Shown: positions 1 through 39,871 of the stretch, one piece after another
How the letters are laid out: each line of letters begins with the position of its first letter
How positions within the stretch are numbered: position 1 is the first letter of the stretch
Assembly (NCBI GenBank): GCA_963834935.1
Contig: CAWIDS010000003.1
Span: 37,999-101,998 of the forward strand
Source of the DNA: Candidatus Nomurabacteria bacterium
GTDB taxonomy: Bacteria; Patescibacteriota; Minisyncoccia; Phycocordibacterales; CALRBL01
Direction: 5' to 3'
Length of the DNA stretch: 64,000 nucleotides
The notes under the pieces: model-generated
The model's input: the letters and a program-made list of their open reading frames with translations, nothing else
Told to the model about the DNA's origin: nothing
The model's database searches: none
Program-made: the position numbers and the translations under genes

Positions 1-1959
1 AAGCGGAGATTCGCCCGTGCCTGACGGCTCATATGATTTCACTTTAGGAAGAATGACAGGCAGATCCTTTTCCTTCACCGGAATGATTGTACCATCCTCG
101 GCATGGAATACTGGAATCGGCTCGCCCCAATAACGCTGCCGAGAAAAAACCCAGTCGCGGAGCTTATAGTTGACCTTGCGGGTTCCAAATCCTCCCTCGA
201 CTATGTGATTGATGATGTCCTGCCGCACTTCTCCCCATTTTCTTCCTTTGAATTTTGAAGGTTCAAGCATTATTCCGTTCCAATCCCTCGCGTAGCAGAC
301 CTCAAGATTTTTTACTTTCTGAGCTAAGACGGGATCTGCAGGAACAGTGACCACCCTGAGAGGTATGTCATATTTCTTTGCAAAAGCAAAATCACGCTCA
401 TCATGGGCGCTGCAATTGACGATTCCTGTTCCGTAATCCGATAAGACATATGATGCGATCCAGATAGGCAGATCCCTTCCTGTATCGGCAAAACTTTCTA
501 TATATCTACCGGTAAAGATTCCTTCCATGTCTTTCTCAACATCGAATTTATTCTGGGCTTTTTTCTGCTTCAGCTTGGCCACGAATTCCATCACTTTCTT
601 TTCATGAGGAGTATCTTTGACTAATTCCTCGATGAGCGGATGATCCGGCGCAATAGCAGTGAACGTTTCGGCATGATATGACTGCGGCACTGAGTTATAC
701 ATCTCAACTCTTATATCGAGATCTTTTACCTTGCATTTGAAATTGACTCCTTCGCTTCTTCCAATCCAATTCCTTTGGCTTTCCTTTATCGATTCTGGCC
801 AGTCAAGAAGCGGTTTTGGAAATCCTTTTTTCGGATCTTTGAGGCGCTCGAGCCAGATAGGTAATTCCGAATTAACCATCTTGCCCGGAACGAAATCAGC
901 TTCGTCGATCCACAGGATTTCATTATCCTTGTCTTCATCGGCGCCGATCGAGACTTTCTTGTAGCTTTTCAATTCAAGATAGACGCCGGTGGCGATCGCT
1001 ACCCTGTTCTCGCCTTTATGCTTGGTGTAATACGAAGCCTTGGTCGGGCCACCGAGAATGCGTTTGAATTCGACATCGACATAACCTGTCTCCTCCTTCA
1101 ATTCGCGGAAAACCGTATCTTTTGCGGTTTCGTCTTCTTCAATTCCGCCGATCACTACCGTATCCCAGCCGAATTTCTTGTTGCGGATGATCAGGTATTT
1201 CTTAGTCTTTGGATCGAAGACGATCGCATGAGCGACCTTTCGGATGACAAGCGGTTTTCCCGGCTGATGCGGATTGACCTTGTCGACTAGTTCCGGCATT
1301 TCATATTCGGTCGCATCCAGATCCTTGAGCAAGCGGTCTGCATAGTCGGTGATTTTCAAGATCCACTGGCGCATCATCTTTTTCTCGACAAGCGCTCCGC
1401 ACCGCTCGCAGCGGCCGTTCTCCACGTCTTCATTGGCCAGGCCTGTCATGTCTACCGGACACCAGTTGATAGGCTCGTACGCTTCGTAGGCCAAGCCTTT
1501 CTCAAGCAATTTCAAGAATATCCATTGCGTCCATTTATAATATTTCGGATCAGTGGTATTCACCTCGCGCGACCAATCGTAATCGAAGCCAAGAATTTCC
1601 AATTGCTTCTTGTAGTGCGCGACATTTTTCGCTACACCGACAGCTGGATTGGTCTTGGTCTTGATTGCATAGTTTTCCGCAGGCAATCCGAAGGCATCGA
1701 AACCCATCGGATGCAAGACATTAAAGCCTTGCATTCGCTTCATGCGCGAGATGACATCAGTGGCAATATATCCTTTCGGATGGCCGACATGAAGGCCTTC
1801 TCCGGACGGATATGGAAACATATCGAGGATATAGCATTTCTCTTTTTTGCCCTCCTCAGCTGTCTTGTAGATTTTCTTCTTTTCCCAGTCTTTCTGCCAC
1901 TTCTTCTCTATCTTGAAAGGGTCATATGATGAGCGGGACACCGGAGTTTTTTTCTTCAT
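1..1959 (-). CDS. leuS: Leucyl-tRNA synthetase, N-terminal about 650 aa; the gene continues past the window start. An extra Nudix domain is inserted.
   Basis: Reverse-strand translation starts [21 protein letters not shown] and carries the HIGH-region motif [16 protein letters not shown], the zinc-finger motif CPVD...CERCG, [9 protein letters not shown], the CP1 editing-domain motifs ([21 protein letters not shown]) and [19 protein letters not shown]. The ORF is absent from the supplied track because it runs off the window edge. Start codon complement at 1957-1959. Confidence 0.85.
   Translation of the reverse strand, partial: [653 protein letters not shown]
802..1305 (-). other. Nudix hydrolase domain inserted into LeuRS, residues about 219-386, between the zinc-finger motif and the RNWIGRSEG motif
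   Basis: Nudix box [23 protein letters not shown] (GX5EX7REUXEEXGU) inside a domain of about 160 aa. E. coli LeuRS is contiguous at this point ([24 protein letters not shown]), so this is a true insertion and not a replacement of CP1. Confidence 0.6.
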
Positions 1960-2105
1960 AAGTGTAATTATCATACACTAGAGGGAGTAATGTAGACAAA
2001 TGTATTTTTATCAGATTGCCTGGAATTGGGCACTTTCTTTTTCAAAAGAAGAAAGACAGCAAAAATTTGAAGAACTATTGAAGGTCACTATTTAATACTT
2101 ACAAC

Positions 2106-2141: not shown

Positions 2142-2408
2142 ATGAAACCTATTGTTCTTATACAGACTGGCGACCGTAGTATGGTTGTCATTTTACCATT
2201 GACCCCCGATTCCCATTCAGATGAAAGCTGGAGTCAAATGGAAAACTTGATCAAGGATGCCTGTGTCGGAGCATTCGACACGGATATGCCCTTGGAAATC
2301 GAGATGGTTGAAGCAATCGTTGAAAAACATCCTGAATGGAAATGCTGGGCACTTGAGTGTATTTCGATTTCCATACAGAGCCTCGATGATGATGAAGATT
2401 TTGGCTAA
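2142..2408 (+). CDS. Hypothetical small acidic protein (88 aa)
   Basis: ORF bounded by a sigma70-like promoter and an intrinsic terminator; no recognisable family. Confidence 0.55.
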   Translation: MKPIVLIQTGDRSMVVILPLTPDSHSDESWSQMENLIKDACVGAFDTDMPLEIEMVEAIVEKHPEWKCWALECISISIQSLDDDEDFG

Positions 2409-2439
2409 TAAACATCTGCACAAAAAGCAACATTTTTTA

Positions 2440-2470
2440 ATATTTCCTGACCAGTCAAGTTGGTCAGGAT
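2440..2470 (+). terminator. Rho-independent terminator
   Basis: Hairpin cctgacca-gtcaag-ttggtcagg followed by attttttattt. Confidence 0.6.
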
Positions 2471-2477
2471 TTTTTAT

Positions 2478-4613
2478 TTATCCCCTGCCATACTCCTTTC
2501 TGCCTTTAATTCCCTTGTTCTCGTCCTTTTTTTCTTTCTTGTCGCGCTTCACTTTGTTGTCCATCCTTTCTACAATCGCTTTTATTTCATCGCGAAGTAT
2601 CGCAGCAGTTTCAAAATCCAGATCCTTCACCGCTTCGCTCATCTGCTTTTCTTTTTCCTTAATGAGCTTGGCTGGATTTTTCTGGTAGGCCTCTTCATCG
2701 AGCTTCAAAAGAGTTTTTATGGTCTTCTCATGCTCACTCTGAATCTCTTCGGTGATATCTTTGATTTTTTTGATGATAGTTGTCGGAGTAATCCCATGTT
2801 CCTTGTTGTAGGCAAGCTGGATAGTGCGACGACGCTCGGTTTCTTTCATGGCTTTCTCCATCGAATTGGTAATCTTGTCGGCATAGAGAATGACGCGGCC
2901 TTCCGAATTTCTGGCTGCACGACCGATGGTCTGAATGAGCGCTTGTTCCGAACGGAGGAAGCCTTCCTTGTCCGCGTCGAGGATGCCTATAAGCGCCACT
3001 TCGGGAAGATCCAATCCTTCGCGAAGAAGGTTCACTCCGACAAGCACGTCGAATGTGCCTTTACGGAGCTCGGTCAAGATGCGAATGCGATCAAGCGTCT
3101 CGATATCGCTATGCAGATACTCCGCCTTTATCTTCTTTTCCTTCAGATACTCGCTTAAATCTTCTGCCATTTTCTTAGTAAGCGTCGTTGCAATCACCCT
3201 GAAGCCTTTCTTGATCACCTCGAGCGCTTCTTCGGTGAAATCGATCACCTGGCCAAGGTATTTCTTGTCAGTAGTACTGACGATCGGCTTGACGGAAATG
3301 ATCGGATCGACAAGACCTGTCGGACGGATGATCTGCTCCGCAATGTTTTGGCTTTTTTCGAATTCGTATTTGCCTGGAGTAGCCGAAGTATAGATAGCTT
3401 GACCGATTTTTTTCTCAAATTCCTCGAACTTGAGAGGGCGGTTATCACGAGCAGATGGCAATCGAAAGCCGAATTCGATGAGGCTTTGCTTTCGCGAAGC
3501 GTCTCCGGCATACATTCCGCCTATCTGCGGAATGGTGACGTGTGACTCGTCGATGATGGTCAGGAAATCCGCACTGCCATCGGCATTATGGGGAAAATAT
3601 GAAAGCAGCGAATCGGGTGCTTCTCCGGGAGCCTTGCCCGAAAAATGCCGGGAATAGTTCTCTATGCCGTTGCAATAGCCGACTTCCTTGATCAGCGCGA
3701 GGTCGTAATTGGTTCGGCGCTTCAGGCGGTCAGCTTCGAGTATCTTGCCTTCAGCTGCCAATTCTTTCAGCCTCCTGTCGAGTTCGGCTTTGATGTCCTT
3801 GATTGCACGGATGCGCTCGTCTTCCGGCGTGACGAAATGCTTTGCAGGAAACAAGAAGAAGACGGGGACCTCCTCGACGATCCTGCGGGTTATTTCGTCT
3901 ATCTTGAAGACGCTTTGTATCACGCTTTCGCCTTTGACAGTTGCGCCGAATTCAACTTTGTAGATCACCCGTTCGGATGTCGGCATGATTTCTATTTTGT
4001 TTCCCATCGCCCGGAACGTTCCCGGACTCAAATCTGCATTGGTACGCGTAAAGTAGATGGAAATGAGCCGGCGGATGAACTCTGCGCGGTCGGTCTTTGC
4101 GCCTGCCTGTATTTTCATATTGACTTTCTGATATTCCACAGGACTTCCCAAGCCGTAGATGCAAGAAACGGACGCGACGATAATCACGTCATTGCGACTA
4201 AGAAGCGCTTGAGTAGAAGCATGGCGCAGTCGGTCAATTTCCTCATTTATCTGCGCTTCCTTCTCTATATATGTGTCAGTCGTCGGCATGTAGGCTTCCG
4301 GCTGGTAGTAGTCGTAATAGGAAACAAAGTAGTGGACGGCATTATCTGGAAAGAATTCCCGATATTCCTGAGCAAGCTGGGCCGCGAGAGTTTTGTTGTG
4401 GGCAATCACCAGCGTCGGCTTGCCGACATGAGCAATCACATTCGCCACAGTGAAAGTCTTTCCGCTGCCTGTCACTCCGAGCAATGTCTGATGCCTGTAG
4501 CTTCGCTCGATACCTTCAATGAGGCTCTCAATAGCCTTTGGCTGATCCCCTGCGGGAGCAAATCGGGTGGAAATCTTGAATAGGTTTTCTTTTTTCTGCT
4601 CTTTTTTTGCCAT
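2478..4613 (-). CDS. uvrB: Excinuclease ABC subunit B
   Basis: 711 aa with Walker A GVTGSGKT, the UvrB beta-hairpin region and helicase motifs, and a lysine-rich C-terminal tail. An upstream TGTATAGT-like -10 lies 6 nt before the ATG, which implies a leaderless transcript. Confidence 0.95.
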   Translation of the reverse strand: MAKKEQKKENLFKISTRFAPAGDQPKAIESLIEGIERSYRHQTLLGVTGSGKTFTVANVIAHVGKPTLVIAHNKTLAAQLAQEYREFFPDNAVHYFVSYYDYYQPEAYMPTTDTYIEKEAQINEEIDRLRHASTQALLSRNDVIIVASVSCIYGLGSPVEYQKVNMKIQAGAKTDRAEFIRRLISIYFTRTNADLSPGTFRAMGNKIEIMPTSERVIYKVEFGATVKGESVIQSVFKIDEITRRIVEEVPVFFLFPAKHFVTPEDERIRAIKDIKAELDRRLKELAAEGKILEADRLKRRTNYDLALIKEVGYCNGIENYSRHFSGKAPGEAPDSLLSYFPHNADGSADFLTIIDESHVTIPQIGGMYAGDASRKQSLIEFGFRLPSARDNRPLKFEEFEKKIGQAIYTSATPGKYEFEKSQNIAEQIIRPTGLVDPIISVKPIVSTTDKKYLGQVIDFTEEALEVIKKGFRVIATTLTKKMAEDLSEYLKEKKIKAEYLHSDIETLDRIRILTELRKGTFDVLVGVNLLREGLDLPEVALIGILDADKEGFLRSEQALIQTIGRAARNSEGRVILYADKITNSMEKAMKETERRRTIQLAYNKEHGITPTTIIKKIKDITEEIQSEHEKTIKTLLKLDEEAYQKNPAKLIKEKEKQMSEAVKDLDFETAAILRDEIKAIVERMDNKVKRDKKEKKDENKGIKGRKEYGRG

Positions 4614-4673
4614 TACTTAACTATACACTTTTTTGCTTTTTCGTGCTAAAAAGGGTGCTGAAAGGAACAACTT

Positions 4674-4835
4674 ATGGCAGGAACATTAAACGTAACGGAA
4701 ACAGACCAGGGAACAGGAGAAGCGCCTTTGGATCGCATTCCAGGCGAAGACCCGGACGAAACAGCAGATTGCTCTGGCGACGGAGCAGAATGTCCGCTTG
4801 GCACGGTAGTAGTCCGGACGGATCAAAAGGAATGA
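4674..4835 (+). CDS. Hypothetical small acidic protein (53 aa, MAGTLNVTETDQGTGEAPLDRIPGEDPDETADCSGDGAECPLGTVVVRTDQKE)
   Basis: ORF shorter than 60 aa and therefore not in the track. It has a weak AAAGG ribosome-binding site upstream and is followed 11 nt later by a strong intrinsic terminator. Confidence 0.35.
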   Translation: MAGTLNVTETDQGTGEAPLDRIPGEDPDETADCSGDGAECPLGTVVVRTDQKE

Positions 4836-4846
4836 TATTCCGACTT

Positions 4847-4876
4847 GCGCAACCTCACGTAGGTTGCGCTTTTTTG
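4847..4876 (+). terminator. Rho-independent terminator
   Basis: gcgcaacct-cacgt-aggttgcgc followed by tttttt. Confidence 0.6.
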
Positions 4877-4880
4877 CAAT

Positions 4881-4906
4881 AAAAAAGCCCCTTCATGCTA
4901 GGGGCG
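4881..4906 (-). terminator. Rho-independent terminator for the minus-strand gene 4925-5398
   Basis: On the minus strand: gcccct-agcatga-aggggc followed by ttttttatt. Confidence 0.55.
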
Positions 4907-4924
4907 CTGGTTCAACAGCTTTCA

Positions 4925-5398
4925 TCACTTCTTTTTTCGTGGCAGCCTTTCCTGCTTGATCTTAAGACGGAACACGATTTTCGGCCGGAGCTTGAAACCA
5001 AGAACGAGAGCGATATCCCTCAATTCATCATCATACTCGTTTACCTTCATCTCAACGTATCGATAGGCATTGCCTTGCAGGCTATCCCTGATCGATTCGA
5101 GGAGGCGTTTCCTGATGGCGAGGGTGTCAAGTCCCTTCATGACAACCAGGTTCCTTATTTCCGTGCAAGTGTGACCGAGCGGGTTAGAAGGAAGAATGAC
5201 TGCCATTCCTACAATGTTATCATCCATGCGTGCTATGAAGACGCGCAAGGATGCCATGTGCTCACGAAGCTGTTTGAGGCTCGTGATTTCGGATGCTTCA
5301 GAGTGTTGAAGGCGTAGCAGCTTGTTGATCTGCCGTACCGTGTCTTCTCTGGCATCAAGTGGGTATAGTCGTCCCACATCGACAGTTCCAGTGAACAT
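4925..5398 (-). CDS. Hypothetical protein (157 aa), possibly a GNAT-like acetyltransferase
   Basis: ORF with a downstream terminator; the family assignment is weak. Confidence 0.5.
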   Translation of the reverse strand: MFTGTVDVGRLYPLDAREDTVRQINKLLRLQHSEASEITSLKQLREHMASLRVFIARMDDNIVGMAVILPSNPLGHTCTEIRNLVVMKGLDTLAIRKRLLESIRDSLQGNAYRYVEMKVNEYDDELRDIALVLGFKLRPKIVFRLKIKQERLPRKKK

Positions 5399-5432
5399 AC
5401 TAGCTGGACTTTATAACTCAACAGAATCAAAG

Positions 5433-6641
5433 TCAATCTTTCAAATAGTTTCCCAGAAAAGCCTCCTTGTACTCCTCGAAATTGCCGTCCAGAATGCTTT
5501 GCCTCATGCCATCGACCAGATTGATTATGAAATGGAGATTATGCACCGAAGCTAGCGTGCAGCCGAGCATTTCCTTGGCGCGGAAAAGGTGAGCGATATA
5601 TGCTTTGGTGTAATGGGTGCATGTATGACAATTACAGCCTGCCTGAATCGGAGAAAAATCTTCGCGGTATGACGTATTCAAGATATGAATCTTGCCAGCC
5701 GATGTATATAAAGTGCCGGAGCGGCCTGTGCGCGTCGGGCCGACACAATCGAAAAGGTCGCAGCCATTCTCCACCGCCATAAAGAGGTCTTCCGGCTCGC
5801 CGATGCCAAGAAGGTGCCGCGGCTTGTCCTCCGGCAATACTTCATTGACCCACTTTACAGCTGTCGACATGTCTTCTTTGGCGAAGGACCCGCCGATGCC
5901 GAAGCCATCGAAATCCATCGTCCCTATTATCTCCGCGCTTTCCTTGCGCAGCTTCTCGTGTCTTCCGCCTTGGACGATTCCAAAAAGGGCCGGCCCGCTT
6001 CCGTTTTCCTTTTTCAATTCATCATGGCGCACCAAGCTCCTCCGCGCCCAGCGATGTGTCCGATCAAGCGCCTGACGCTGGTAAGCAAATGGCTCGTGGG
6101 GCGAAGTGCATTCGTCAAAAGCAAAGATAATGTCTGCTCCGAGATTATGCTGAATCTCCACCGAACGCTCGGGAGTGAAGTAGTGCGCGTCGCCGCTCAA
6201 ATGCGAGCGGAACATCACGCCATCGTGGTCAATCTTCACCAGCTTTGGCATGGTATCTTCCGGAAGCTGCGCAAGCAAAGGCTCTTCAGAGGGCTTCAGC
6301 AGCTTGCCTATTCCCTTTCCGTATGCAGCACCGAGAGAAAAAACCTGGAAGCCTCCTGAGTCGGTCATCGTCGGGCCATGCCAATTCATGAACTTGCCAA
6401 GGCCGCCTGCCTTTTTTACCTTCTCGTCGCCAGGCTCAAGAAAAAGGTGGTAAGTGTTGGCGAGCACCACCTGCGCGCCGGCGTCTGCAACTTGTTCAGG
6501 CGAAAGGCCTTTGACAGTCGCTTTGGTTCCTACTGTCACGAATGCAGGCGTCTTGATAATCCCGTTCGATGTCGAAATTTCTCCGGCACGGCCTAGTGTC
6601 CCTTCCAGTCTCTTATGTATGGAGAATTTAAAAACCGACAT
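5433..6641 (-). CDS. tgt: Queuine tRNA-ribosyltransferase (tRNA-guanine transglycosylase)
   Basis: Motifs VTVGTKATVKG, LANTYHL, DSGGFQVFSL and the zinc-site motif CNCHTC...H. Confidence 0.9.
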   Translation of the reverse strand: MSVFKFSIHKRLEGTLGRAGEISTSNGIIKTPAFVTVGTKATVKGLSPEQVADAGAQVVLANTYHLFLEPGDEKVKKAGGLGKFMNWHGPTMTDSGGFQVFSLGAAYGKGIGKLLKPSEEPLLAQLPEDTMPKLVKIDHDGVMFRSHLSGDAHYFTPERSVEIQHNLGADIIFAFDECTSPHEPFAYQRQALDRTHRWARRSLVRHDELKKENGSGPALFGIVQGGRHEKLRKESAEIIGTMDFDGFGIGGSFAKEDMSTAVKWVNEVLPEDKPRHLLGIGEPEDLFMAVENGCDLFDCVGPTRTGRSGTLYTSAGKIHILNTSYREDFSPIQAGCNCHTCTHYTKAYIAHLFRAKEMLGCTLASVHNLHFIINLVDGMRQSILDGNFEEYKEAFLGNYLKD

Positions 6642-7180
6642 TATTTGATGCTGACCAGCTCAATCTCGAAAATCAATGTCGAATTCGCAGGAATAGTTCC
6701 GGTCGACGTAGGCACTGCCTGATTGCCGTATCCGAGAGCTGGCGGAATGATCAGCTTTCGCTTTCCTCCAACTTTCATGCCAACAACTCCTTCATCCCAT
6801 CCTTTGATCACCTGACCCACTCCGAGCGTGAATGGCAGAGGCTGGTTCCTGTCATACGAGCTGTCGAATTTCGTACCATCCTCGAGCGTTCCGACATAAT
6901 TCATCTCAAGCTGATCCCCAGCTTTGGCTGCGGGACCTGTTCCTATCTGTTCGTCCTGGATAATAAGGCCATCAGGAAGCGTTGTTGGTTCGTTCATGTT
7001 TGTGGTTGTTGTTGCTTGTGCTGTTAATGCTGCCGATGTCGCCGCTTGATTCGTATCCGGCGCCGACACTACTGTTGGTCCCATCGAATTCTGGTAAAGG
7101 CTATATCCGCCTAAAGCGATGCCAACGGCGATAAGGGCGATGACGATCGCTATCCATTTATTTTTCTCTGTTGTGTTCAT
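6641..7180 (-). CDS. FKBP-type peptidyl-prolyl cis-trans isomerase, membrane-anchored
   Basis: C-terminal FKBP domain (DGTKFDSSYDRNQPLPFTLGVGQVIKGWDEGVVGMKVGGKRKLIIPPALGYG) with an N-terminal transmembrane helix. Start chosen at the ATG (MNTTEKNKW) and not at the track start. Confidence 0.8.
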   Translation of the reverse strand: MNTTEKNKWIAIVIALIAVGIALGGYSLYQNSMGPTVVSAPDTNQAATSAALTAQATTTTNMNEPTTLPDGLIIQDEQIGTGPAAKAGDQLEMNYVGTLEDGTKFDSSYDRNQPLPFTLGVGQVIKGWDEGVVGMKVGGKRKLIIPPALGYGNQAVPTSTGTIPANSTLIFEIELVSIK

Positions 7181-7222
7181 GAAAATATGATACCATATCA
7201 TTCTACTAATTAAGAAATATAA

Positions 7223-8509
<1,287 letters not shown>

Positions 8510-8518
8510 GCAAATAAA

Positions 8519-8541
8519 AAAACCGTCATAAAGACGGTCAG
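8519..8541 (-). terminator. Terminator hairpin with a T-run on the minus strand
   Basis: Hairpin accgtc-ataaag-acggt. It is flanked by an A-run on the plus strand, which reads as a T-run on the minus strand. Confidence 0.5.
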
Positions 8542-9026
8542 AGATTATCCATTAGCTCCGCAGCATCCATGCGAAGTATCTCCGCCCATTTCATTTTCCA
8601 CTCCCATACCCTTCGGAAATCCTTGAGGTAGAAGTATCCATCGGAAAGCATTATCACATCCTTGTGCTCGGTGGTTTCATTTGACACTTCGTCATCATAG
8701 TAAACCACGGCAAGCGAAAATGCAGCCGTAATCATGCGAGTAGCCTTGTTGGCAAAAATTGTCGGTAGAAGATTGAAGTATTCCGCTGTCCTCCCGGCCG
8801 AAAAATCAATCCTGAAATTGATTCTCCGGCTTTTTTCCATCTTATGACCGATAATCACGCCGTCTTGGTTTACAAGCCACAAAAAGCCGTCGAAACGCTT
8901 CTTGAAAGCTATGATTGCCTTAGGCGTGATGTCGGGATTGTATGTTGCGTCATCAGCGCTAAAACTGGCATTGAAAAGGTACGTGCACTGCTCGGTAGCA
9001 GAAGGTTCTCTTGGCTTATTTTTCAT
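8538..9026 (-). CDS. Hypothetical protein (162 aa), unknown family
   Basis: ORF co-directional with the mreB-holB operon; no recognisable motif. Confidence 0.55.
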   Translation of the reverse strand: MKNKPREPSATEQCTYLFNASFSADDATYNPDITPKAIIAFKKRFDGFLWLVNQDGVIIGHKMEKSRRINFRIDFSAGRTAEYFNLLPTIFANKATRMITAAFSLAVVYYDDEVSNETTEHKDVIMLSDGYFYLKDFRRVWEWKMKWAEILRMDAAELMDNL

Positions 9027-9048
9027 ATGAGAAGGTTTCTCCTCCTAT

Positions 9049-9720
9049 CTAAGCACATAATGCCAGATACTCCAAGATAAGCTTAACCGATGAAGACTGG
9101 TCGAGGGCATAGGAAGCAACTTTTGACGAAAAACCGAGCGATTTGAATTCCTCGATGTTCTTTATCTGGCTATGTTTAGTTTTAACGACTTCCTGAATAA
9201 AAGAAAAGACATCTGATTTTGATATTTTCTCCTTTTCAAGGTCTGAAAGAATATCCTTTACGACGGCGAGACGCTTCGGTATCGGCAACAAAATAAAATC
9301 TCCAGCACCAAAGGCAAGTGAGGCGGCTTTTTCGCCAGAAAAATAAATGACACGGCAACGCGAGAGTATAGTCGGCAGTATCCTCTTGATCGAAGGAATA
9401 AGGATAAAAAAATAAGTGCCTTCAGTAGGTTCTTCAAGCGTCTTAAGCAAGGCATTCCCTGCCTCTCGGGTCATCGAATTCAAGCTAATGATGAAAATTC
9501 TCTTGCCTGTGCCGACTGCCCGGCGCGAAGCCTGCTCCTTTATGTTTCGCGCGTCTTCTATGGCAAAGGTACCAAAAGTACTTGTCAGAAAATCAGGGTT
9601 GTTTTCTATGTTAATGCCATGTTCCTTCTTCAGGATCTTGAGCAGCTTCACATGGGATGAGCGCGCATCCCCTTCGATGAGATACGCATGGTGCAATGGG
9701 ATGAAATCTGAAAGATTCAT
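9049..9720 (-). CDS. holB: DNA polymerase III delta-prime subunit-like clamp loader
   Basis: Motifs HAYLIEG, LLKTLEEP and ILSRC typical of delta-prime and AAA+ clamp-loader subunits. Confidence 0.7.
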   Translation of the reverse strand: MNLSDFIPLHHAYLIEGDARSSHVKLLKILKKEHGINIENNPDFLTSTFGTFAIEDARNIKEQASRRAVGTGKRIFIISLNSMTREAGNALLKTLEEPTEGTYFFILIPSIKRILPTILSRCRVIYFSGEKAASLAFGAGDFILLPIPKRLAVVKDILSDLEKEKISKSDVFSFIQEVVKTKHSQIKNIEEFKSLGFSSKVASYALDQSSSVKLILEYLALCA

Positions 9721-9734
9721 TTTATCTTTTTATT

Positions 9735-10745
9735 TTACCGTTTCGAAATGACGCTTTTCTTGTAGACGTCGAGATGCTCAAGGGCGATGCCGGTGCCTTT
9801 TGCCACGCAGTAAAGCGCGTCGTCAGCTAGGACGGCTTTCACGCCCGTGCGGCGGAATACCAATTCGGGAAGGTTGCGCAGGAGTGATGAGCCGCCGGTC
9901 ATGATGATGCCGTGGTCGATGATGTCTGATGCGAGCTCAGGAGGAGTCTCCTGCAAGACATCCTTTATCGCCTTTATCATCTCACGAAGCTCCTTGGTGA
10001 TAGCTTTGACCACTTCATTAGTCTTTACCTCGATCGAGCGCGGAAGGCCGGTCATCAGATCGCGTCCTTTCACCATCATCGACAACTCTTCTTCCATAGG
10101 AACGGCTGATCCTATCTTTATTTTTATGTCTTCCGCCGTCTTGTCTCCAACTGAAAGGTTGTAGGTCTTCTTGATATGGTCAGTAATGGCATAATCGATG
10201 CGATTGCCGGCACATTTCACCGAAGTGGAAGCGACGATGCCTCCGAGAGAGATCACGGCGACGTCGGTAGTGCCTCCGCCGATATCGACGATCATGTGGC
10301 CGATAGCTTCCTGGATGGAAATGCCCGCGCCGATCGCAGCGAGAATCGGTTCCTTCACGACATACGCATTCTTGGCTCCTGCCTTGATTGCGGCTTCGAT
10401 GACGGCCCGGCGTTCAGTGGAAGTGACTCCAGCCGGAACGGATATCATCACTTCCGGCCGCGAGAAATTCCATTTGCCGAGAGCCTTGTTCATGTAATAG
10501 CGAAGCATCGCTTCGGTCACGCGGTAGTCGGCAATTACGCCATCTTTCATGGGGCGATAGGCGACAATAGAATCAGGCGTCCTGCCTATCATTTCCTTGG
10601 CCTCAAGGCCGACTGCAAGGATCTTATTGTCCTCGGATACGGCCACTACTGACGGCTCATTAAGCACAATTCCCTTGCCGGGCAGAAAAACCAGCGTATT
10701 CGCCGTTCCAAGGTCGATACCTATCTTTTTAGTGAAGAATGCCAT
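9735..10745 (-). CDS. mreB: Rod shape-determining protein MreB
   Basis: IGIDLGTANTLV, actin-fold phosphate loops, 336 aa. Confidence 0.9.
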   Translation of the reverse strand: MAFFTKKIGIDLGTANTLVFLPGKGIVLNEPSVVAVSEDNKILAVGLEAKEMIGRTPDSIVAYRPMKDGVIADYRVTEAMLRYYMNKALGKWNFSRPEVMISVPAGVTSTERRAVIEAAIKAGAKNAYVVKEPILAAIGAGISIQEAIGHMIVDIGGGTTDVAVISLGGIVASTSVKCAGNRIDYAITDHIKKTYNLSVGDKTAEDIKIKIGSAVPMEEELSMMVKGRDLMTGLPRSIEVKTNEVVKAITKELREMIKAIKDVLQETPPELASDIIDHGIIMTGGSSLLRNLPELVFRRTGVKAVLADDALYCVAKGTGIALEHLDVYKKSVISKR

Positions 10746-10803
10746 GGGTACAGTCTAAGGTTAAAACGAGTAAATGTAAAACATGGCGTTCAATCGCCCT
10801 CAT

Positions 10804-10831
10804 TGTCAGAAAACAGGCTGTGTCTTATAAT
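10804..10831 (+). promoter_or_regulatory. Promoter with -35 TTGTCA, a 16-nt spacer and -10 TATAAT
   Basis: Near-consensus hexamers located 32 nt upstream of the 10864 ORF. Confidence 0.45.
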
Positions 10832-10863
10832 ATTTGCATACTTATAAATTAACTTAATAAAAA

Positions 10864-11175
10864 ATGTCAGGACAAGAATTGCCTCGAGACGGAAGGACTG
10901 AAACGGATATTGATCACGCAAGAGAGTTTGCAAGGAAAAAGCAAGAACTCGAAAGCCAAGGATATGAGACAAGAGAAGAAACTGTCAACGAGAGCGGAAT
11001 AGACATGATTCCGCAGGACTACGTTGGCGAGATTGACACTGAATGGGTGCCAGTCTCAAGCTACCGTTCTTACGCCGGAAATGATGACGATTCGACTTAC
11101 GAAGTGCTTTATGCGCGAAAGAAGCCTGAATCAGGCGACGTAGAGGCTTTGATCCAGCCGAACGTTGAAATCTAA
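10864..11175 (+). CDS. Hypothetical acidic protein (103 aa)
   Basis: ORF downstream of a consensus promoter; no recognisable family. Confidence 0.5.
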   Translation: MSGQELPRDGRTETDIDHAREFARKKQELESQGYETREETVNESGIDMIPQDYVGEIDTEWVPVSSYRSYAGNDDDSTYEVLYARKKPESGDVEALIQPNVEI

Positions 11176-11240
11176 CCGTACCCGTCATTTGACATAATAA
11201 TTTTTTTATTCTACTTTATAGCGGAAAGGACTTTTTTGCT

Positions 11241-11729
11241 GTGAAAAAAATATTCATTCTCCGTCACGGGGAGTATAGAAACGACAACGGTCGTTACCCG
11301 TTAAGCGACAACGGAAAACGCCAAGTCCGGGAGCTCGCCTGCCTTCTGAAGGAAAACATCGGCGATGAAACGAGCATCCGCATCCTTTCGTCCGTTGCCT
11401 TAAGAGCGCTTCAAAGCGCTGACATTATTGCCGCCGCGCTCGGCGATATCGAATACGAGCAGCATGAGCTGCTCTGGTTTGATGGTGATGGCCACGGTAA
11501 GCGGGATTATGAAGGCGTAATCGAGCTCATCAGGGAAAGAGATATTGAAGTGGTGATCGTCATCACTCACGATCCATATGTCAGCAGCCTGCCTCGGCCA
11601 GTTGCATATGAGTTCTTCGGCGCAGGAGTGAGATTCCTATCACCAGGCAGAGGAGCGTGCGTCTATGCCGAAGGAATGCTTATAGACGGCGACTGCCGAA
11701 TTTATGACTATTTTCCAGCGCGGAATTAA
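11241..11729 (+). CDS. Histidine phosphatase family protein (SixA/phosphoglycerate mutase-like), GTG start
   Basis: ILRHGE catalytic RHG motif near the N-terminus; about 160 aa. Confidence 0.6.
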   Translation: MKKIFILRHGEYRNDNGRYPLSDNGKRQVRELACLLKENIGDETSIRILSSVALRALQSADIIAAALGDIEYEQHELLWFDGDGHGKRDYEGVIELIRERDIEVVIVITHDPYVSSLPRPVAYEFFGAGVRFLSPGRGACVYAEGMLIDGDCRIYDYFPARN

Positions 11730-11747
11730 ATTCGCTGGCCTTTACCA

Positions 11748-11771
11748 CCGCACCTTAGGGTGCGTTTTTTT
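11748..11771 (+). terminator. Rho-independent terminator
   Basis: ccgcacc-ttag-ggtgcg followed by tttttttat. Confidence 0.6.
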
Positions 11772-11774
11772 ATC

Positions 11775-12878
11775 TCAATAATCCGCCCACGACCACTTTA
11801 TCGCATATGATCCGATTACCACCGAAATGAATGCAGTCAGAAACAGGATTATGATGTCTTTTAAAATTCCCTGTAATGAAGAATAAAAAAGAGCTTGCCT
11901 TAATCCGTCGATGGCATATCGGATGGGAATAAAGGAGCTGAGTGTCTGAAGCCATGGAGAAAGAAAAGAAATGGTGGTGAATCCTCCGCCTAAGAAATAC
12001 ATGTAAGTAGCAAAGACAGTAGCTGCCATCGCGATAGTCCTTGTTTCCTTGAAAAGCGATCCGAGGACCGCCCCCAGGCTGGAAGCGCATGTCGAGGTAG
12101 CAATGAAAATTAATATGATCGCCCACCAATGATAGAGCGGAGGATTTATGATGCCGAACAAGGAACAAAGCGCTACTGCAGGAATAAGGACTGCCAATGA
12201 AGCCAGCAAGCCCCCCGACAAGCGCCCGGCAATCAGAGTGGATGCCGATTGTGGAGCAATGAGAAGCAGGCGAGAGGTCTTCCTCTCAATGTCTTGAGCA
12301 CACATGAGGGCAGTTCCCATCAATCCTACATTGAGGATCAGCAGGACCAGAGCCGGGATGATCTGATAATCCAGCCAATCTACATTCGTCTTTCGAATGT
12401 CGTGCTCGTCCACTTGTATCAGATACGGATTCTTGCCGGCATCTGAGGAAGATATGTTAAATTGGCCGACTGAGCGGTCGACGCTTCGCCTGATGTCGTC
12501 AGCGAAATCGATATCAATATTATTCAAAGTCAGCATCACGTCTCCGCCATTCTTCATCACTTCAGCATCGAAATCGGCGGGTATAGTGATGATTGCCGCG
12601 ATCTTTTGGTCTGAGAGCATTTTTTCGGCGGTTTTCGAGTCCGTCAATGTAAGCAGATACGCATCGTCGTCAGCCTGGATGATGTGCGACATCCTTTGCG
12701 CGGCTGTACCGTTGCTGCCAAGCACCAAAGCGACTGGCTGCTGCGTCACCGTAAAGCTCAGGATCACCAGGAAGAAAGTCATCATTATCGGCGGCAGCAA
12801 GACGCTTGCCATCGCGAGCGGCATCCTCCACCACCTAAGTAGATCGAGCTGCGCTAATTTCCATATGTTCCTGATCAT
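11775..12878 (-). CDS. ABC-2 type transporter permease
   Basis: Six-transmembrane ABC-2 permease architecture with a large extracytoplasmic loop after TM1. Confidence 0.75.
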   Translation of the reverse strand: MIRNIWKLAQLDLLRWWRMPLAMASVLLPPIMMTFFLVILSFTVTQQPVALVLGSNGTAAQRMSHIIQADDDAYLLTLTDSKTAEKMLSDQKIAAIITIPADFDAEVMKNGGDVMLTLNNIDIDFADDIRRSVDRSVGQFNISSSDAGKNPYLIQVDEHDIRKTNVDWLDYQIIPALVLLILNVGLMGTALMCAQDIERKTSRLLLIAPQSASTLIAGRLSGGLLASLAVLIPAVALCSLFGIINPPLYHWWAIILIFIATSTCASSLGAVLGSLFKETRTIAMAATVFATYMYFLGGGFTTISFLSPWLQTLSSFIPIRYAIDGLRQALFYSSLQGILKDIIILFLTAFISVVIGSYAIKWSWADY

Positions 12879-39797: not shown

Positions 39798-39871
39798 TGC
39801 GAGATCGTCTAATGGTAGGACATCAGGTTTTGGTCCTGAGTATCTAGGTTCGAGTCCTAGTCTCGCAGCCA
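39798..39871 (+). tRNA. tRNA-Gln (anticodon UUG), CCA encoded
   Basis: Hand-folded cloverleaf: acceptor tgcgaga/tctcgca; D-arm gtct-aatggta-ggac; anticodon stem tcagg/cctga with loop ttTTGgt; T-arm ctagg-ttcgagt-cctag; discriminator g followed by cca. Confidence 0.8.

Follow-up and report, generated by a model that had tools for sequence, protein, structure and literature searches.

A Nudix hydrolase domain at the editing-domain hinge of leucyl-tRNA synthetase in Patescibacteria

Aminoacyl-tRNA synthetases are highly conserved, and an added domain is usually the sign of a new function, for example in editing, tRNA binding or signalling. What, then, does a Nudix hydrolase do inside a leucyl-tRNA synthetase (LeuRS)? 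The question is raised by a stretch of 64,000 nucleotides from Candidatus Nomurabacteria bacterium (assembly GCA_963834935.1, contig CAWIDS010000003.1, positions 37,999 to 101,998), here called the window, at one end of which the gene leuS encodes a LeuRS with a complete Nudix domain lodged between its zinc-binding motif and its CP1 editing domain. Nudix domains of this kind recur on both sides of CP1 in LeuRS proteins from across the Patescibacteria. Members of the same family are found in prolyl-tRNA synthetases (ProRS) and as separate genes, often next to synthetase genes. These fusions and gene neighbourhoods form the main case for linking the family, in its function, to aminoacyl-tRNA synthetases; what the domain hydrolyses can be answered more tentatively.

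The window gene is the bacterial-type LeuRS of a bacterium of the Patescibacteria (candidate phyla radiation, CPR). Although leuS is cut by the window edge, the NCBI contig extends to 201 kb, and an identical full-length database protein, P0010, comprises 985 amino acids. Translation may start at either of two ATG codons, the one at 1974 with which P0010 begins or the one at 1959, five codons later; Pfam residue numbers given here are those of the 653-aa translation from 1959, and all other residue numbers are those of P0010. Despite its truncation by the window, the 653-aa protein scores 590.3 bits against the NCBIfam model TIGR00396 leuS_bact (cut-off 548.4), and Pfam places tRNA-synt_1 at 20-219. 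Both class I motifs are found, HVGH (HIGH) at 62-65 within the window and KMSKR at 763-767 outside it. The domains of P0010 run from ZN1 (C172...C189xxC192) through Nudix and RNWIGRSEG to PF13603, which is the bacterial order, with CP1 after ZN1. The features of the gene in the window are as follows.

1-1974, minus strand: N-terminal 658 of the 985 codons of leuS, an open frame that runs past window base 1
1309-1974, minus strand: Rossmann catalytic core, first half, which includes HVGH (HIGH), ZN1 (CPVD...CERCG) and a helix (residues 1-222; model helix 208-220)
811-1308, minus strand: inserted Nudix module of 166 aa (residues 223-388), including a family-specific N-terminal linker and the C-terminal helix LPIWLERLK
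1081-1149, minus strand: Nudix box, G276-Y298, with predicted catalytic residues E282, R290, E291, E294 and E295
1003-1032, minus strand: family-specific segment Y315-R324, with an aromatic pair 17-18 residues past the box and invariant H319, K320, N323 and R324
748-810, minus strand: resumption of LeuRS, a helix and the first beta-strand linker into CP1 (residues 389-409; model helix 394-404, strand 406-416)
202-774, minus strand: CP1 editing domain of a variant type (Pfam PF13603 at 396-586, E 5.6e-41, 140.5 bits against a cut-off of 25), with just 30-33% identity to the canonical CP1 of LeuRS proteins that otherwise reach 66-78%
679-696, minus strand: variant threonine-rich (T-rich) motif NSVPQS (residues 427-432; TTRPDT, T247-T252, in E. 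coli; alignment A3)
391-405, minus strand: HDERD (residues 524-528; D525, R527 and D528 correspond to E. coli D342, R344 and D345)
1-201, minus strand: catalytic core after CP1 (residues 592-658; alignment A3)

The boundaries of the insert were drawn from an alignment of P0010, five relatives and E. coli LeuS (NC_000913). The insert begins after LLKDLD, with junctions DLD/ATEYE and PKPL/LDWPE; it lies between the helix behind ZN1 and the helix-strand segment (RNWIGRSEG) leading to CP1. E. coli LeuS is contiguous exactly at this point, as a preliminary description of this DNA had stated, and the closest relative without a Nudix domain, P0046, is contiguous there as well. That description had placed the insert at 802-1305; the location stands, and the alignment corrects the limits to 811-1308. 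Pfam NUDIX (PF00293), the match it had advised looking for, is found at 241-325 (E 4e-10) with 40.2 bits against a gathering cut-off of 21.1. The box agrees with Gx5Ex7REUxEExGU at all positions, and no second one occurs in any of the window's six frames. In a full-length AlphaFold model built with 62 homologues, the mean predicted local distance difference test (pLDDT) is 87.9 and the predicted template modelling score 0.80; ten-residue blocks over the insert have pLDDT of 82-95, mostly at least 89, and the insert modelled alone reaches 89.6. The modelled insert has the alpha/beta/alpha Nudix fold, for which Foldseek returns the structure 2azw at E 7.7e-10. Pfam, the E. coli alignment, the structure models and Foldseek all bear out a complete canonical Nudix domain between ZN1 and RNWIGRSEG, and the PF13603 match agrees with the earlier claim that CP1 is retained downstream.

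E. coli LeuS and Thermus thermophilus LeuRS share with the window enzyme HIGH, ZN1, CP1 placed after ZN1, the KMSK(R) loop, and the anticodon-binding and C-terminal domains; to these the window LeuRS adds the 166-aa Nudix domain between ZN1 and the first linker strand of CP1. It further differs from bacterial LeuRS in having NSVPQS instead of TTRPDT, in the loss of the second zinc cysteine pair, and in replacing the leucine-specific domain before KMSKR with the tetrapeptide EDGR (residues 755-767, beyond window base 1; alignment A3). The leucine-specific domain is also absent from Nudix-less relatives and is not obligatory for the bacterial LeuRS family. The four cysteines of the second zinc module are lost in the window LeuRS (window ~76-105, minus strand; residues 624-633), as in E. 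coli; most close relatives keep this module, reading HCEKCGVVPV and VNVKCPKCKG, and the window LeuRS later reads VNVGKLKRE. The minimal LeuRS of Mycoplasma mobile has the tetrapeptide GKDG in place of the leucine-specific domain and has lost CP1 altogether (PMC3643597). The two cases are alike in the exchange of the leucine-specific domain for a tetrapeptide, in a reduced genome and in a remodelled LeuRS, but CP1 is gone in M. mobile, whereas the present LeuRS retains it and has acquired a further hydrolase domain.

How far does this architecture extend? A survey of related genomes had been proposed in the preliminary description, and the same insertion indeed recurs across Patescibacteria. 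A scan of GTDB, with one genome per species and with peptides from the insert as queries, returned 19 loci, all in metagenome-assembled genomes of Patescibacteria (CPR) and including one closed 876-kb chromosome. These loci fall in Paceibacterota/Parcubacteria, in Giovannonibacteria and in some genomes labelled Saccharibacteria. A protein search with the window LeuRS added dozens of LeuRS proteins with PF00293 from Taylorbacteria, Magasanikbacteria, Nomurabacteria and Paceibacterota.

Placement was recorded in a motif census of 133 LeuRS relatives of at least 700 aa from the protein search, 81 of which carry at least one Nudix domain, giving 104 boxes. Fifty-two of the 133 have no Nudix domain, 34 have one before CP1 as in the window, 27 have one after CP1 between KYxLPI and GxLxNSG, 14 have one on each side of CP1, and six have tandem copies before CP1. 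None of the 104 boxes lies within CP1 or elsewhere in LeuRS. The window type itself occurs at both CP1 linkers, being 64-65% identical to the post-CP1 copies of L014 and L016, and a conserved linker (...R) travels with the module between the two positions. Because the same type and the same linker are found in both places, the module is taken to have moved between the two CP1 linkers. Established structures of LeuRS show the two linkers paired in an antiparallel beta-ribbon, which places them side by side.

Some members of this set carry more than one added domain. In the tandem pre-CP1 pairs (P0024, P0033, P0057, P0093, L010) the second copy usually has a degenerate box, with Gx5Q and AxAE in place of Gx5E and xRE, and is probably an inactive partner domain. 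An alpha/beta-hydrolase (PF06821/PF12146/PF00561/PF12695) is present in P0027, P0069 and P0036, where it sits inside CP1, between RNWIGKSEGAEIDF, which it directly follows, and the T-rich motif; in P0036 it is accompanied by three Nudix domains, two ahead of it and one after CP1. The Nudix-less P0046 (Ca. Taylorbacteria, 836 aa) is 75% identical to the window LeuRS by local BLASTP and 68% over the full alignment. Its locus (L038) keeps the gene order DUF5671, leuS, sigma70_r4/HARE-HTH, DUF8128, YceG, and a gene for a HAD-type hydrolase (L038:7522-8157, plus strand) lies 11 nt downstream of its leuS.

The T-rich motif of the editing domain beside the insert had been called degenerate in the preliminary description; the departure from TTRPDT is real, but it marks a conserved alternative CP1 type that is common to the Nudix-less P0046 and P0075 and is unlinked to the Nudix domain. 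An association between the T-rich variant and the Nudix domain was considered and discarded, as both CP1 types occur with and without Nudix; the apparent link, in which Nudix-less matches mostly lack TTRPDT, is a selection effect because the query itself has the variant CP1. Among proteins whose N-terminal catalytic core is 66-79% identical to that of the window, identity over the Nudix segment falls into two classes, 67-81% and 27-44%, and in the lower class another type of Nudix occupies the site. For CP1 the two classes are 52-80% and 30-33%, the lower one representing the canonical TTRPDT form. Two CP1 types are thus seen in LeuRS backbones that are otherwise 58-78% identical (the window against P0022, P0025, P0026, P0030, P0032 and P0037). 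This mosaic suggests cassette-like exchange of CP1 between lineages, and on these comparisons the Nudix-CP1 region as a whole appears to act like an exchangeable cassette.

Run against 1.84 billion cluster representatives, a profile of 27 Nudix modules (alignment A2) matched 1804 proteins at E <=0.001 and 314 at <=1e-10. Among the best 150 representatives, 109 are LeuRS and at least two are ProRS (the L032 ProRS insert has a profile E of 3e-38). Another 28 are shorter than 230 aa, start with Met and are apparently free-standing, a few of them looking like gene fragments; nine are other proteins of 231-467 aa, and two are short and have no initial Met. A metagenome scan seeded with a six-sequence alignment of free-standing members returned a LeuRS host in 73 of 79 matches and few new free-standing copies.

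The ProRS (L032:2762-4693, plus strand, 643 aa) has its Nudix domain between the anticodon-binding and C-terminal ProRS-C_1 domains. As this domain belongs to the same family, the fusion therefore extends beyond class I synthetases. An isoleucyl-tRNA synthetase, IleRS (L026:6094-9648, plus strand, 1184 aa), has a histidine-phosphatase domain, PF00300 (523-675, E 1.4e-30), in its catalytic domain; the 10-kb locus L026 also holds four separate Nudix genes, a dUTPase and a thymidylate kinase.

Free-standing members of the family are separate genes of about 165 aa, often beside synthetase genes. The nine that were examined are placed as follows.

P0230: 2-3 nt upstream of an insert-free leuS, on three contigs
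P0148: 2 nt upstream of a leuS whose product has its Nudix domain after CP1
P0183: between argS and ileS
P0161: two genes upstream of a proS whose product has a Nudix domain between its anticodon-binding and C-terminal domains
P0210: immediately precedes a tRNA_SAD-domain gene
P0158: adjoins fpg and spoU, directly after fpg
P0192: adjoins another Nudix gene
L062 and L065: adjoin unrelated genes

Synthetase genes adjoin five of these nine, against a rough chance expectation, which is an estimate, of about 10% (some 20 synthetase genes among some 800). The free-standing member in L065 (L065:5435-5863, plus strand) follows a GNAT gene and overlaps by 4 nt the start of a gene for DUF2000, which we take to have a peptidyl-tRNA-hydrolase-like fold.

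A third arrangement is found among the nine proteins of 231-467 aa, four of which (273-308 aa) consist of a reduced CP1-like segment followed by Nudix; a fifth of similar size has only Nudix in Pfam. Stand-alone proteins with this miniature CP1 and Nudix, of about 275-308 aa, are encoded at L036:44-970, L037:688-1614, L067:4731-5558 and L074:4740-5573. Their CP1-like segment, without the T-rich and GTG motifs but with the final Asp, is followed by Nudix and a GxxINS-like tail. One of them, P0220, is an independent gene between dehydrogenase and radical-SAM genes, and two further such genes adjoin genes for CYTH-domain (triphosphate tunnel) proteins.

Is the inserted domain an enzyme? Within the 81 Nudix-bearing LeuRS, 97 of the 104 boxes are strictly canonical, and five of the seven degenerate ones are second copies in tandem arrays, with E changed to Q and RE to AE. 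The catalytic positions of the box are invariant in the 27 family modules. Beyond the box, R245, H319, K320, N323, R324 and E334 are invariant and the Y315 column is near-invariant (in alignment A2, columns H89, K90, N93 and R94 are invariant and Y85 near-invariant), while E347 and W355 are kept in at least 90% of the modules. Conservation extends to free-standing members at the R, K, N-R, E and W positions, and identity over the insert (67-81%) is as high as over the catalytic core (66-79%). This conservation points to an active hydrolase, with extra basic residues that would bind a long phosphate chain; the segment containing H319, K320, N323 and R324 may contact both base and polyphosphate.

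The class of substrate can be approached through structural and sequence markers. After the uncharacterised 2azw, the best Foldseek matches are RenU, RppH, decapping effectors, Rv2985, DDP1/DIPP1, Ndx1, NudI, the Aquifex Ap4A (diadenosine tetraphosphate) hydrolase and MutT1; these folds outrank ADP-sugar enzymes, although the scores are nearly flat. The hydrolases of ApnA (diadenosine polyphosphates) 3i7u, 1vc8 and 9cxx rank high structurally, as do NudI, MutT1 and RppH. A profile search of the PDB gave box-centred matches only, at E 7e-5 or weaker and from mixed subfamilies; with those from NCBIfam, the weak sequence matches take in NudB, RppH, NudE and Ap4A hydrolase. A tyrosine 16-18 residues past the Nudix box, a marker credited to Dunn et al. 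1999, is said to identify ApnA hydrolases; the window domain has Y315 and Y316 at +17 and +18, and all but one of 99 boxes (98) have Y, F or H at +17, which is a weak criterion for this activity. ADP-ribose pyrophosphatases have a Pro about 15-16 residues past the box, which is not in place here, the only nearby Pro being P310 at +12. The NADH pyrophosphatase (NudC) marker SQPWPFPxS, which follows the box, is absent from the insert, and the NCBIfam model for NAD(+) diphosphatase is matched weakly in only two of the 27 members. The motif of coenzyme A pyrophosphatases, LLTxR(SA)x3Rx3Gx3FPGG, precedes the box in those enzymes and is absent from the sequence upstream of the window box. Taken together, the markers weakly favour a nucleoside polyphosphate with at least three phosphates as the substrate.

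NCBIfam models give weak matches, all far below their cut-offs, to NudB (the most frequent, in 26 of 27 members), RppH and NudE. For RppH (the PRK00714 models) the insert scores about 20-24 bits (best 23.7 against 118; cut-offs 116-259) and free-standing members score at most 39.8 bits; the MutT 8-oxo-dGTPase models (TIGR00586, PRK10776) give 14-17 bits and their cut-offs of 98-148 are not reached. The structures of RppH (E. coli, 6d13/7sp3) and of the ApnA hydrolases (Aquifex aq_158, 3i7u; T. thermophilus Ndx1, an Ap6A hydrolase, 1vc8; M. tuberculosis Rv2985, 9cxx) are 14-23% identical to the window domain and are free-standing, whereas the window domain is embedded in a synthetase. The Enterococcus faecalis MutT/Nudix protein 2azw, at 18-19% identity, is unfused and uncharacterised.

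What, then, would such an enzyme do within a synthetase? The reading favoured here, plausible but tentative, is that the Nudix domain clears Ap4A-type dinucleoside polyphosphate by-products of the synthetase. An aminoacyl-adenylate bound by the synthetase can react with ATP or another nucleotide to give Ap4A, Ap3A or Ap4N, and the Nudix domain would hydrolyse these dinucleoside polyphosphates. The synthetase would thus carry its own enzyme for clean-up and nucleotide recycling, tethered at the CP1 hinge. Such tethering would suit nucleotide-salvaging organisms without the usual Ap4A hydrolases, as we take these bacteria to be. The by-product chemistry of aminoacyl-adenylates is common to LeuRS, ProRS and the other synthetases whose genes neighbour the family. 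Of the two hydrolytic roles suggested in the preliminary description, the one on Ap4A fits both the fold matches and the gene neighbourhoods, and nothing supports the one on aminoacyl-adenylate.

Several points weigh against this proposal. LeuRS is, to our knowledge, not among the strong producers of Ap4A. All LeuRS insertions flank CP1, and proteins made of a miniature CP1 and Nudix exist, which together point to the editing domain that binds tRNA ends rather than to the adenylate site. P0046 has neither the insert nor an adjoining Nudix gene, so that this locus can dispense with the function. Of the nine free-standing members, four are not beside synthetase genes, and one of them lies beside fpg, which fits MutT-like sanitation of nucleotides. 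No characterised Nudix subfamily is matched above its NCBIfam cut-off (24 bits against 103-118).

Sanitation of this kind is also the substance of the best-surviving alternative, which is possible though on balance rather unlikely: an ordinary pyrophosphohydrolase for nucleoside triphosphates or oxidised nucleotides (MutT/NudI/NudB-like) would have been captured repeatedly at a permissive site on the enzyme surface for the sake of co-expression, with no mechanistic coupling to the synthetase, whose gene is essential and constitutively expressed in these streamlined genomes. NudI, MutT1 and MutT are among the top Foldseek matches and NudB is the model most often matched, if weakly, in NCBIfam (26 of 27); the fpg gene that P0158 directly follows encodes an 8-oxoguanine glycosylase. 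The site does look permissive, as the CP1 region accepts unrelated inserts such as the alpha/beta-hydrolase of P0027, P0069 and P0036, IleRS has acquired a histidine phosphatase, and the 75%-identical P0046 does without an insert. A random permissive site, however, leaves unexplained why LeuRS should account for 109 of the 150 best representatives of a single Nudix family. It accounts no better for insertion at both CP1 linkers and in ProRS, for free-standing members that abut leuS at 2-3 nt, or for synthetase neighbours in five cases of nine.

According to a further alternative, which is unlikely, the Nudix domain together with CP1 removes a blocking pyrophosphate or cap from the ends of tRNA or other RNA and so restores chargeable tRNA; candidate substrates include the 3'-pyrophosphorylated CCA ends made by toxSAS toxins, 5' polyphosphates and Np4A caps. 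CP1, which all LeuRS insertions flank, binds the 3' CCA end of tRNA, the same Nudix type is found at either of its linkers, and proteins combining a CP1 remnant with Nudix exist as independent genes. The association also reaches ProRS, ArgRS/IleRS and ThrRS/AlaX-like genes, all of which have a tRNA substrate. Pyrophosphorylation of tRNA CCA ends is itself established (bioRxiv 10.1101/2021.04.30.441581; PMC11559606). Yet none of the loci shows a toxSAS or comparable toxin, the known removers of CCA pyrophosphate are SAH hydrolases and not Nudix enzymes, and the T-rich and GTG motifs are missing from the miniature CP1 of the stand-alone proteins, a loss that makes its binding of A76 doubtful. 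A more specific form of the idea, somewhat less probable again, casts Nudix and CP1 as a composite module for tRNA-end repair, in which CP1 would hold the CCA end while Nudix removes a pyrophosphate or nucleotide adduct, giving the synthetases of these episymbiotic bacteria built-in resistance to tRNA-targeting toxins. Such a module is allowed by the exclusive placement at CP1 linkers, by the stand-alone genes for a CP1 remnant and Nudix, and by the RppH-like fold.

It is distinctly improbable that the domain is non-catalytic and serves as a nucleotide-binding sensor, as an allosteric module, or as a prop at the CP1 hinge with a structural or tRNA-binding role. Inactive or regulatory Nudix folds do occur among the structural matches (the regulators NrtR, AraR and NadQ, and mitoribosomal L46), and seven of the 104 boxes are degenerate, mostly in second tandem copies; but every catalytic residue is kept in the other 97, that of the window included, which is unexpected of a pure binding module. 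These LeuRS proteins also do without the leucine-specific domain, but their Nudix-less relatives lack it too, so the Nudix domain does not compensate for that loss.

Pre-transfer editing, in which the Nudix domain would hydrolyse non-cognate aminoacyl-adenylates released from the synthetic site, has very little probability. The domain adjoins the editing domain, and the CP1 of the window has a non-canonical T-rich motif; against this, an aminoacyl-AMP is an acyl-phosphate with one phosphate and not a nucleoside diphosphate derivative, we know of no Nudix enzyme that uses aminoacyl-AMP, and the variant CP1 occurs without Nudix (P0046) just as Nudix occurs with the canonical CP1.

An artefact, be it a chimeric assembly, a neighbour gene joined by a frameshift or an intein, can be dismissed. 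Although the window edge cuts the gene and numerous relatives in the databases break off at contig ends, the reading frame is single and uninterrupted, an independent assembly agrees fully, base composition is uniform, and many genomes have homologues of full length. The independent assembly (L020, a Logan assembly of run ERR10755936) shows no difference from the window across the 4317 nt they share, and GC content is 0.482 for the insert and 0.463 for the remainder of the gene (at third codon positions, 0.578 and 0.537). A chimera, which the preliminary description had named as the finding that would overturn it, is further contradicted by the same architecture in dozens of genomes and metagenomes. 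As for the other two forms, the one open reading frame rules out a frameshift, and an intein was rejected as the insert starts with Ala and ends in ...KPL/L, so that the required Cys/Ser at the N-junction and His-Asn-Cys/Ser/Thr at the C-junction are absent.

The fusion had been thought undescribed, and this holds for the literature: no description of a Nudix-bearing synthetase was found in full-text literature on LeuRS and synthetases, Nudix and CPR, and the candidate papers bring up Nudix for unrelated reasons only. It does not hold for databases, where the architecture already stands, unremarked, in public Pfam annotations; many public protein records combine PF00133, PF00293 and PF13603, and where named they are called only 'leucine--tRNA ligase'. 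NCBIfam has no model for a Nudix-bearing LeuRS. It does catalogue synthetases with extra enzyme domains, such as IleRS-GNAT (NF040702), which resembles the present case in uniting a class Ia synthetase with an unrelated catalytic domain and differs from it in domain, position and lineage. A precedent from the Nudix side is the bifunctional nicotinamide-nucleotide adenylyltransferase/Nudix hydrolase NadM-Nudix, a fusion to an HxGH nucleotidyltransferase in which Nudix is C-terminal rather than internal as here; its model (NF003786) is weakly matched by 10 of the 27 family members, with a best E of 1.6e-6. HxGH nucleotidyltransferases share the Rossmann-like fold class of class I synthetases, and the Nudix domain of NadM-Nudix is an ADP-ribose pyrophosphatase. 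As far as can be told, the components are each of known kinds, and what is new is their combination, its recurrence, the mobility of the domain around CP1 and the existence of a synthetase-associated Nudix family.

An essential class I synthetase has thus gained a second, apparently active hydrolase at the hinge of its editing domain. The fusions, the operon-linked free-standing copies and the ProRS version amount to a Rosetta-stone-type signal that the Nudix family would act on a product or substrate of synthetases. Knowing that substrate would bring within reach of experiment the question of how ultra-small, nucleotide-salvaging bacteria handle Ap4A-type alarmones or damaged tRNA ends. Further questions concern the tolerance of LeuRS for the exchange of CP1 and accessory-domain cassettes, and the use of the CP1 linkers as engineering sites for domain insertion.

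The neighbours of leuS in the window, from 2478 to 12878, are ordinary housekeeping genes.

2478-4613, minus strand: UvrB
4925-5398, minus strand: GNAT
5433-6641, minus strand: tRNA-guanine transglycosylase
6641-7231, minus strand: FKBP
7226-8509, plus strand: enolase
beyond enolase, within 2478-12878: DNA polymerase III delta-prime-like protein
9735-10745, minus strand: MreB
within 2478-12878: ABC-2 permease

The sole RNA gene in the window is a tRNA-Gln(UUG) at 39798-39871. A scan for promoters and terminators upstream of leuS found sites no more numerous than in shuffled sequence. The interval 2142-2469 (plus strand), between leuS and uvrB, holds an 88-aa open reading frame with no Pfam match, which is also called in the independent assembly. 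This frame is followed by a strong terminator-like hairpin at 2445-2469, with an 11-bp stem and then a run of T.

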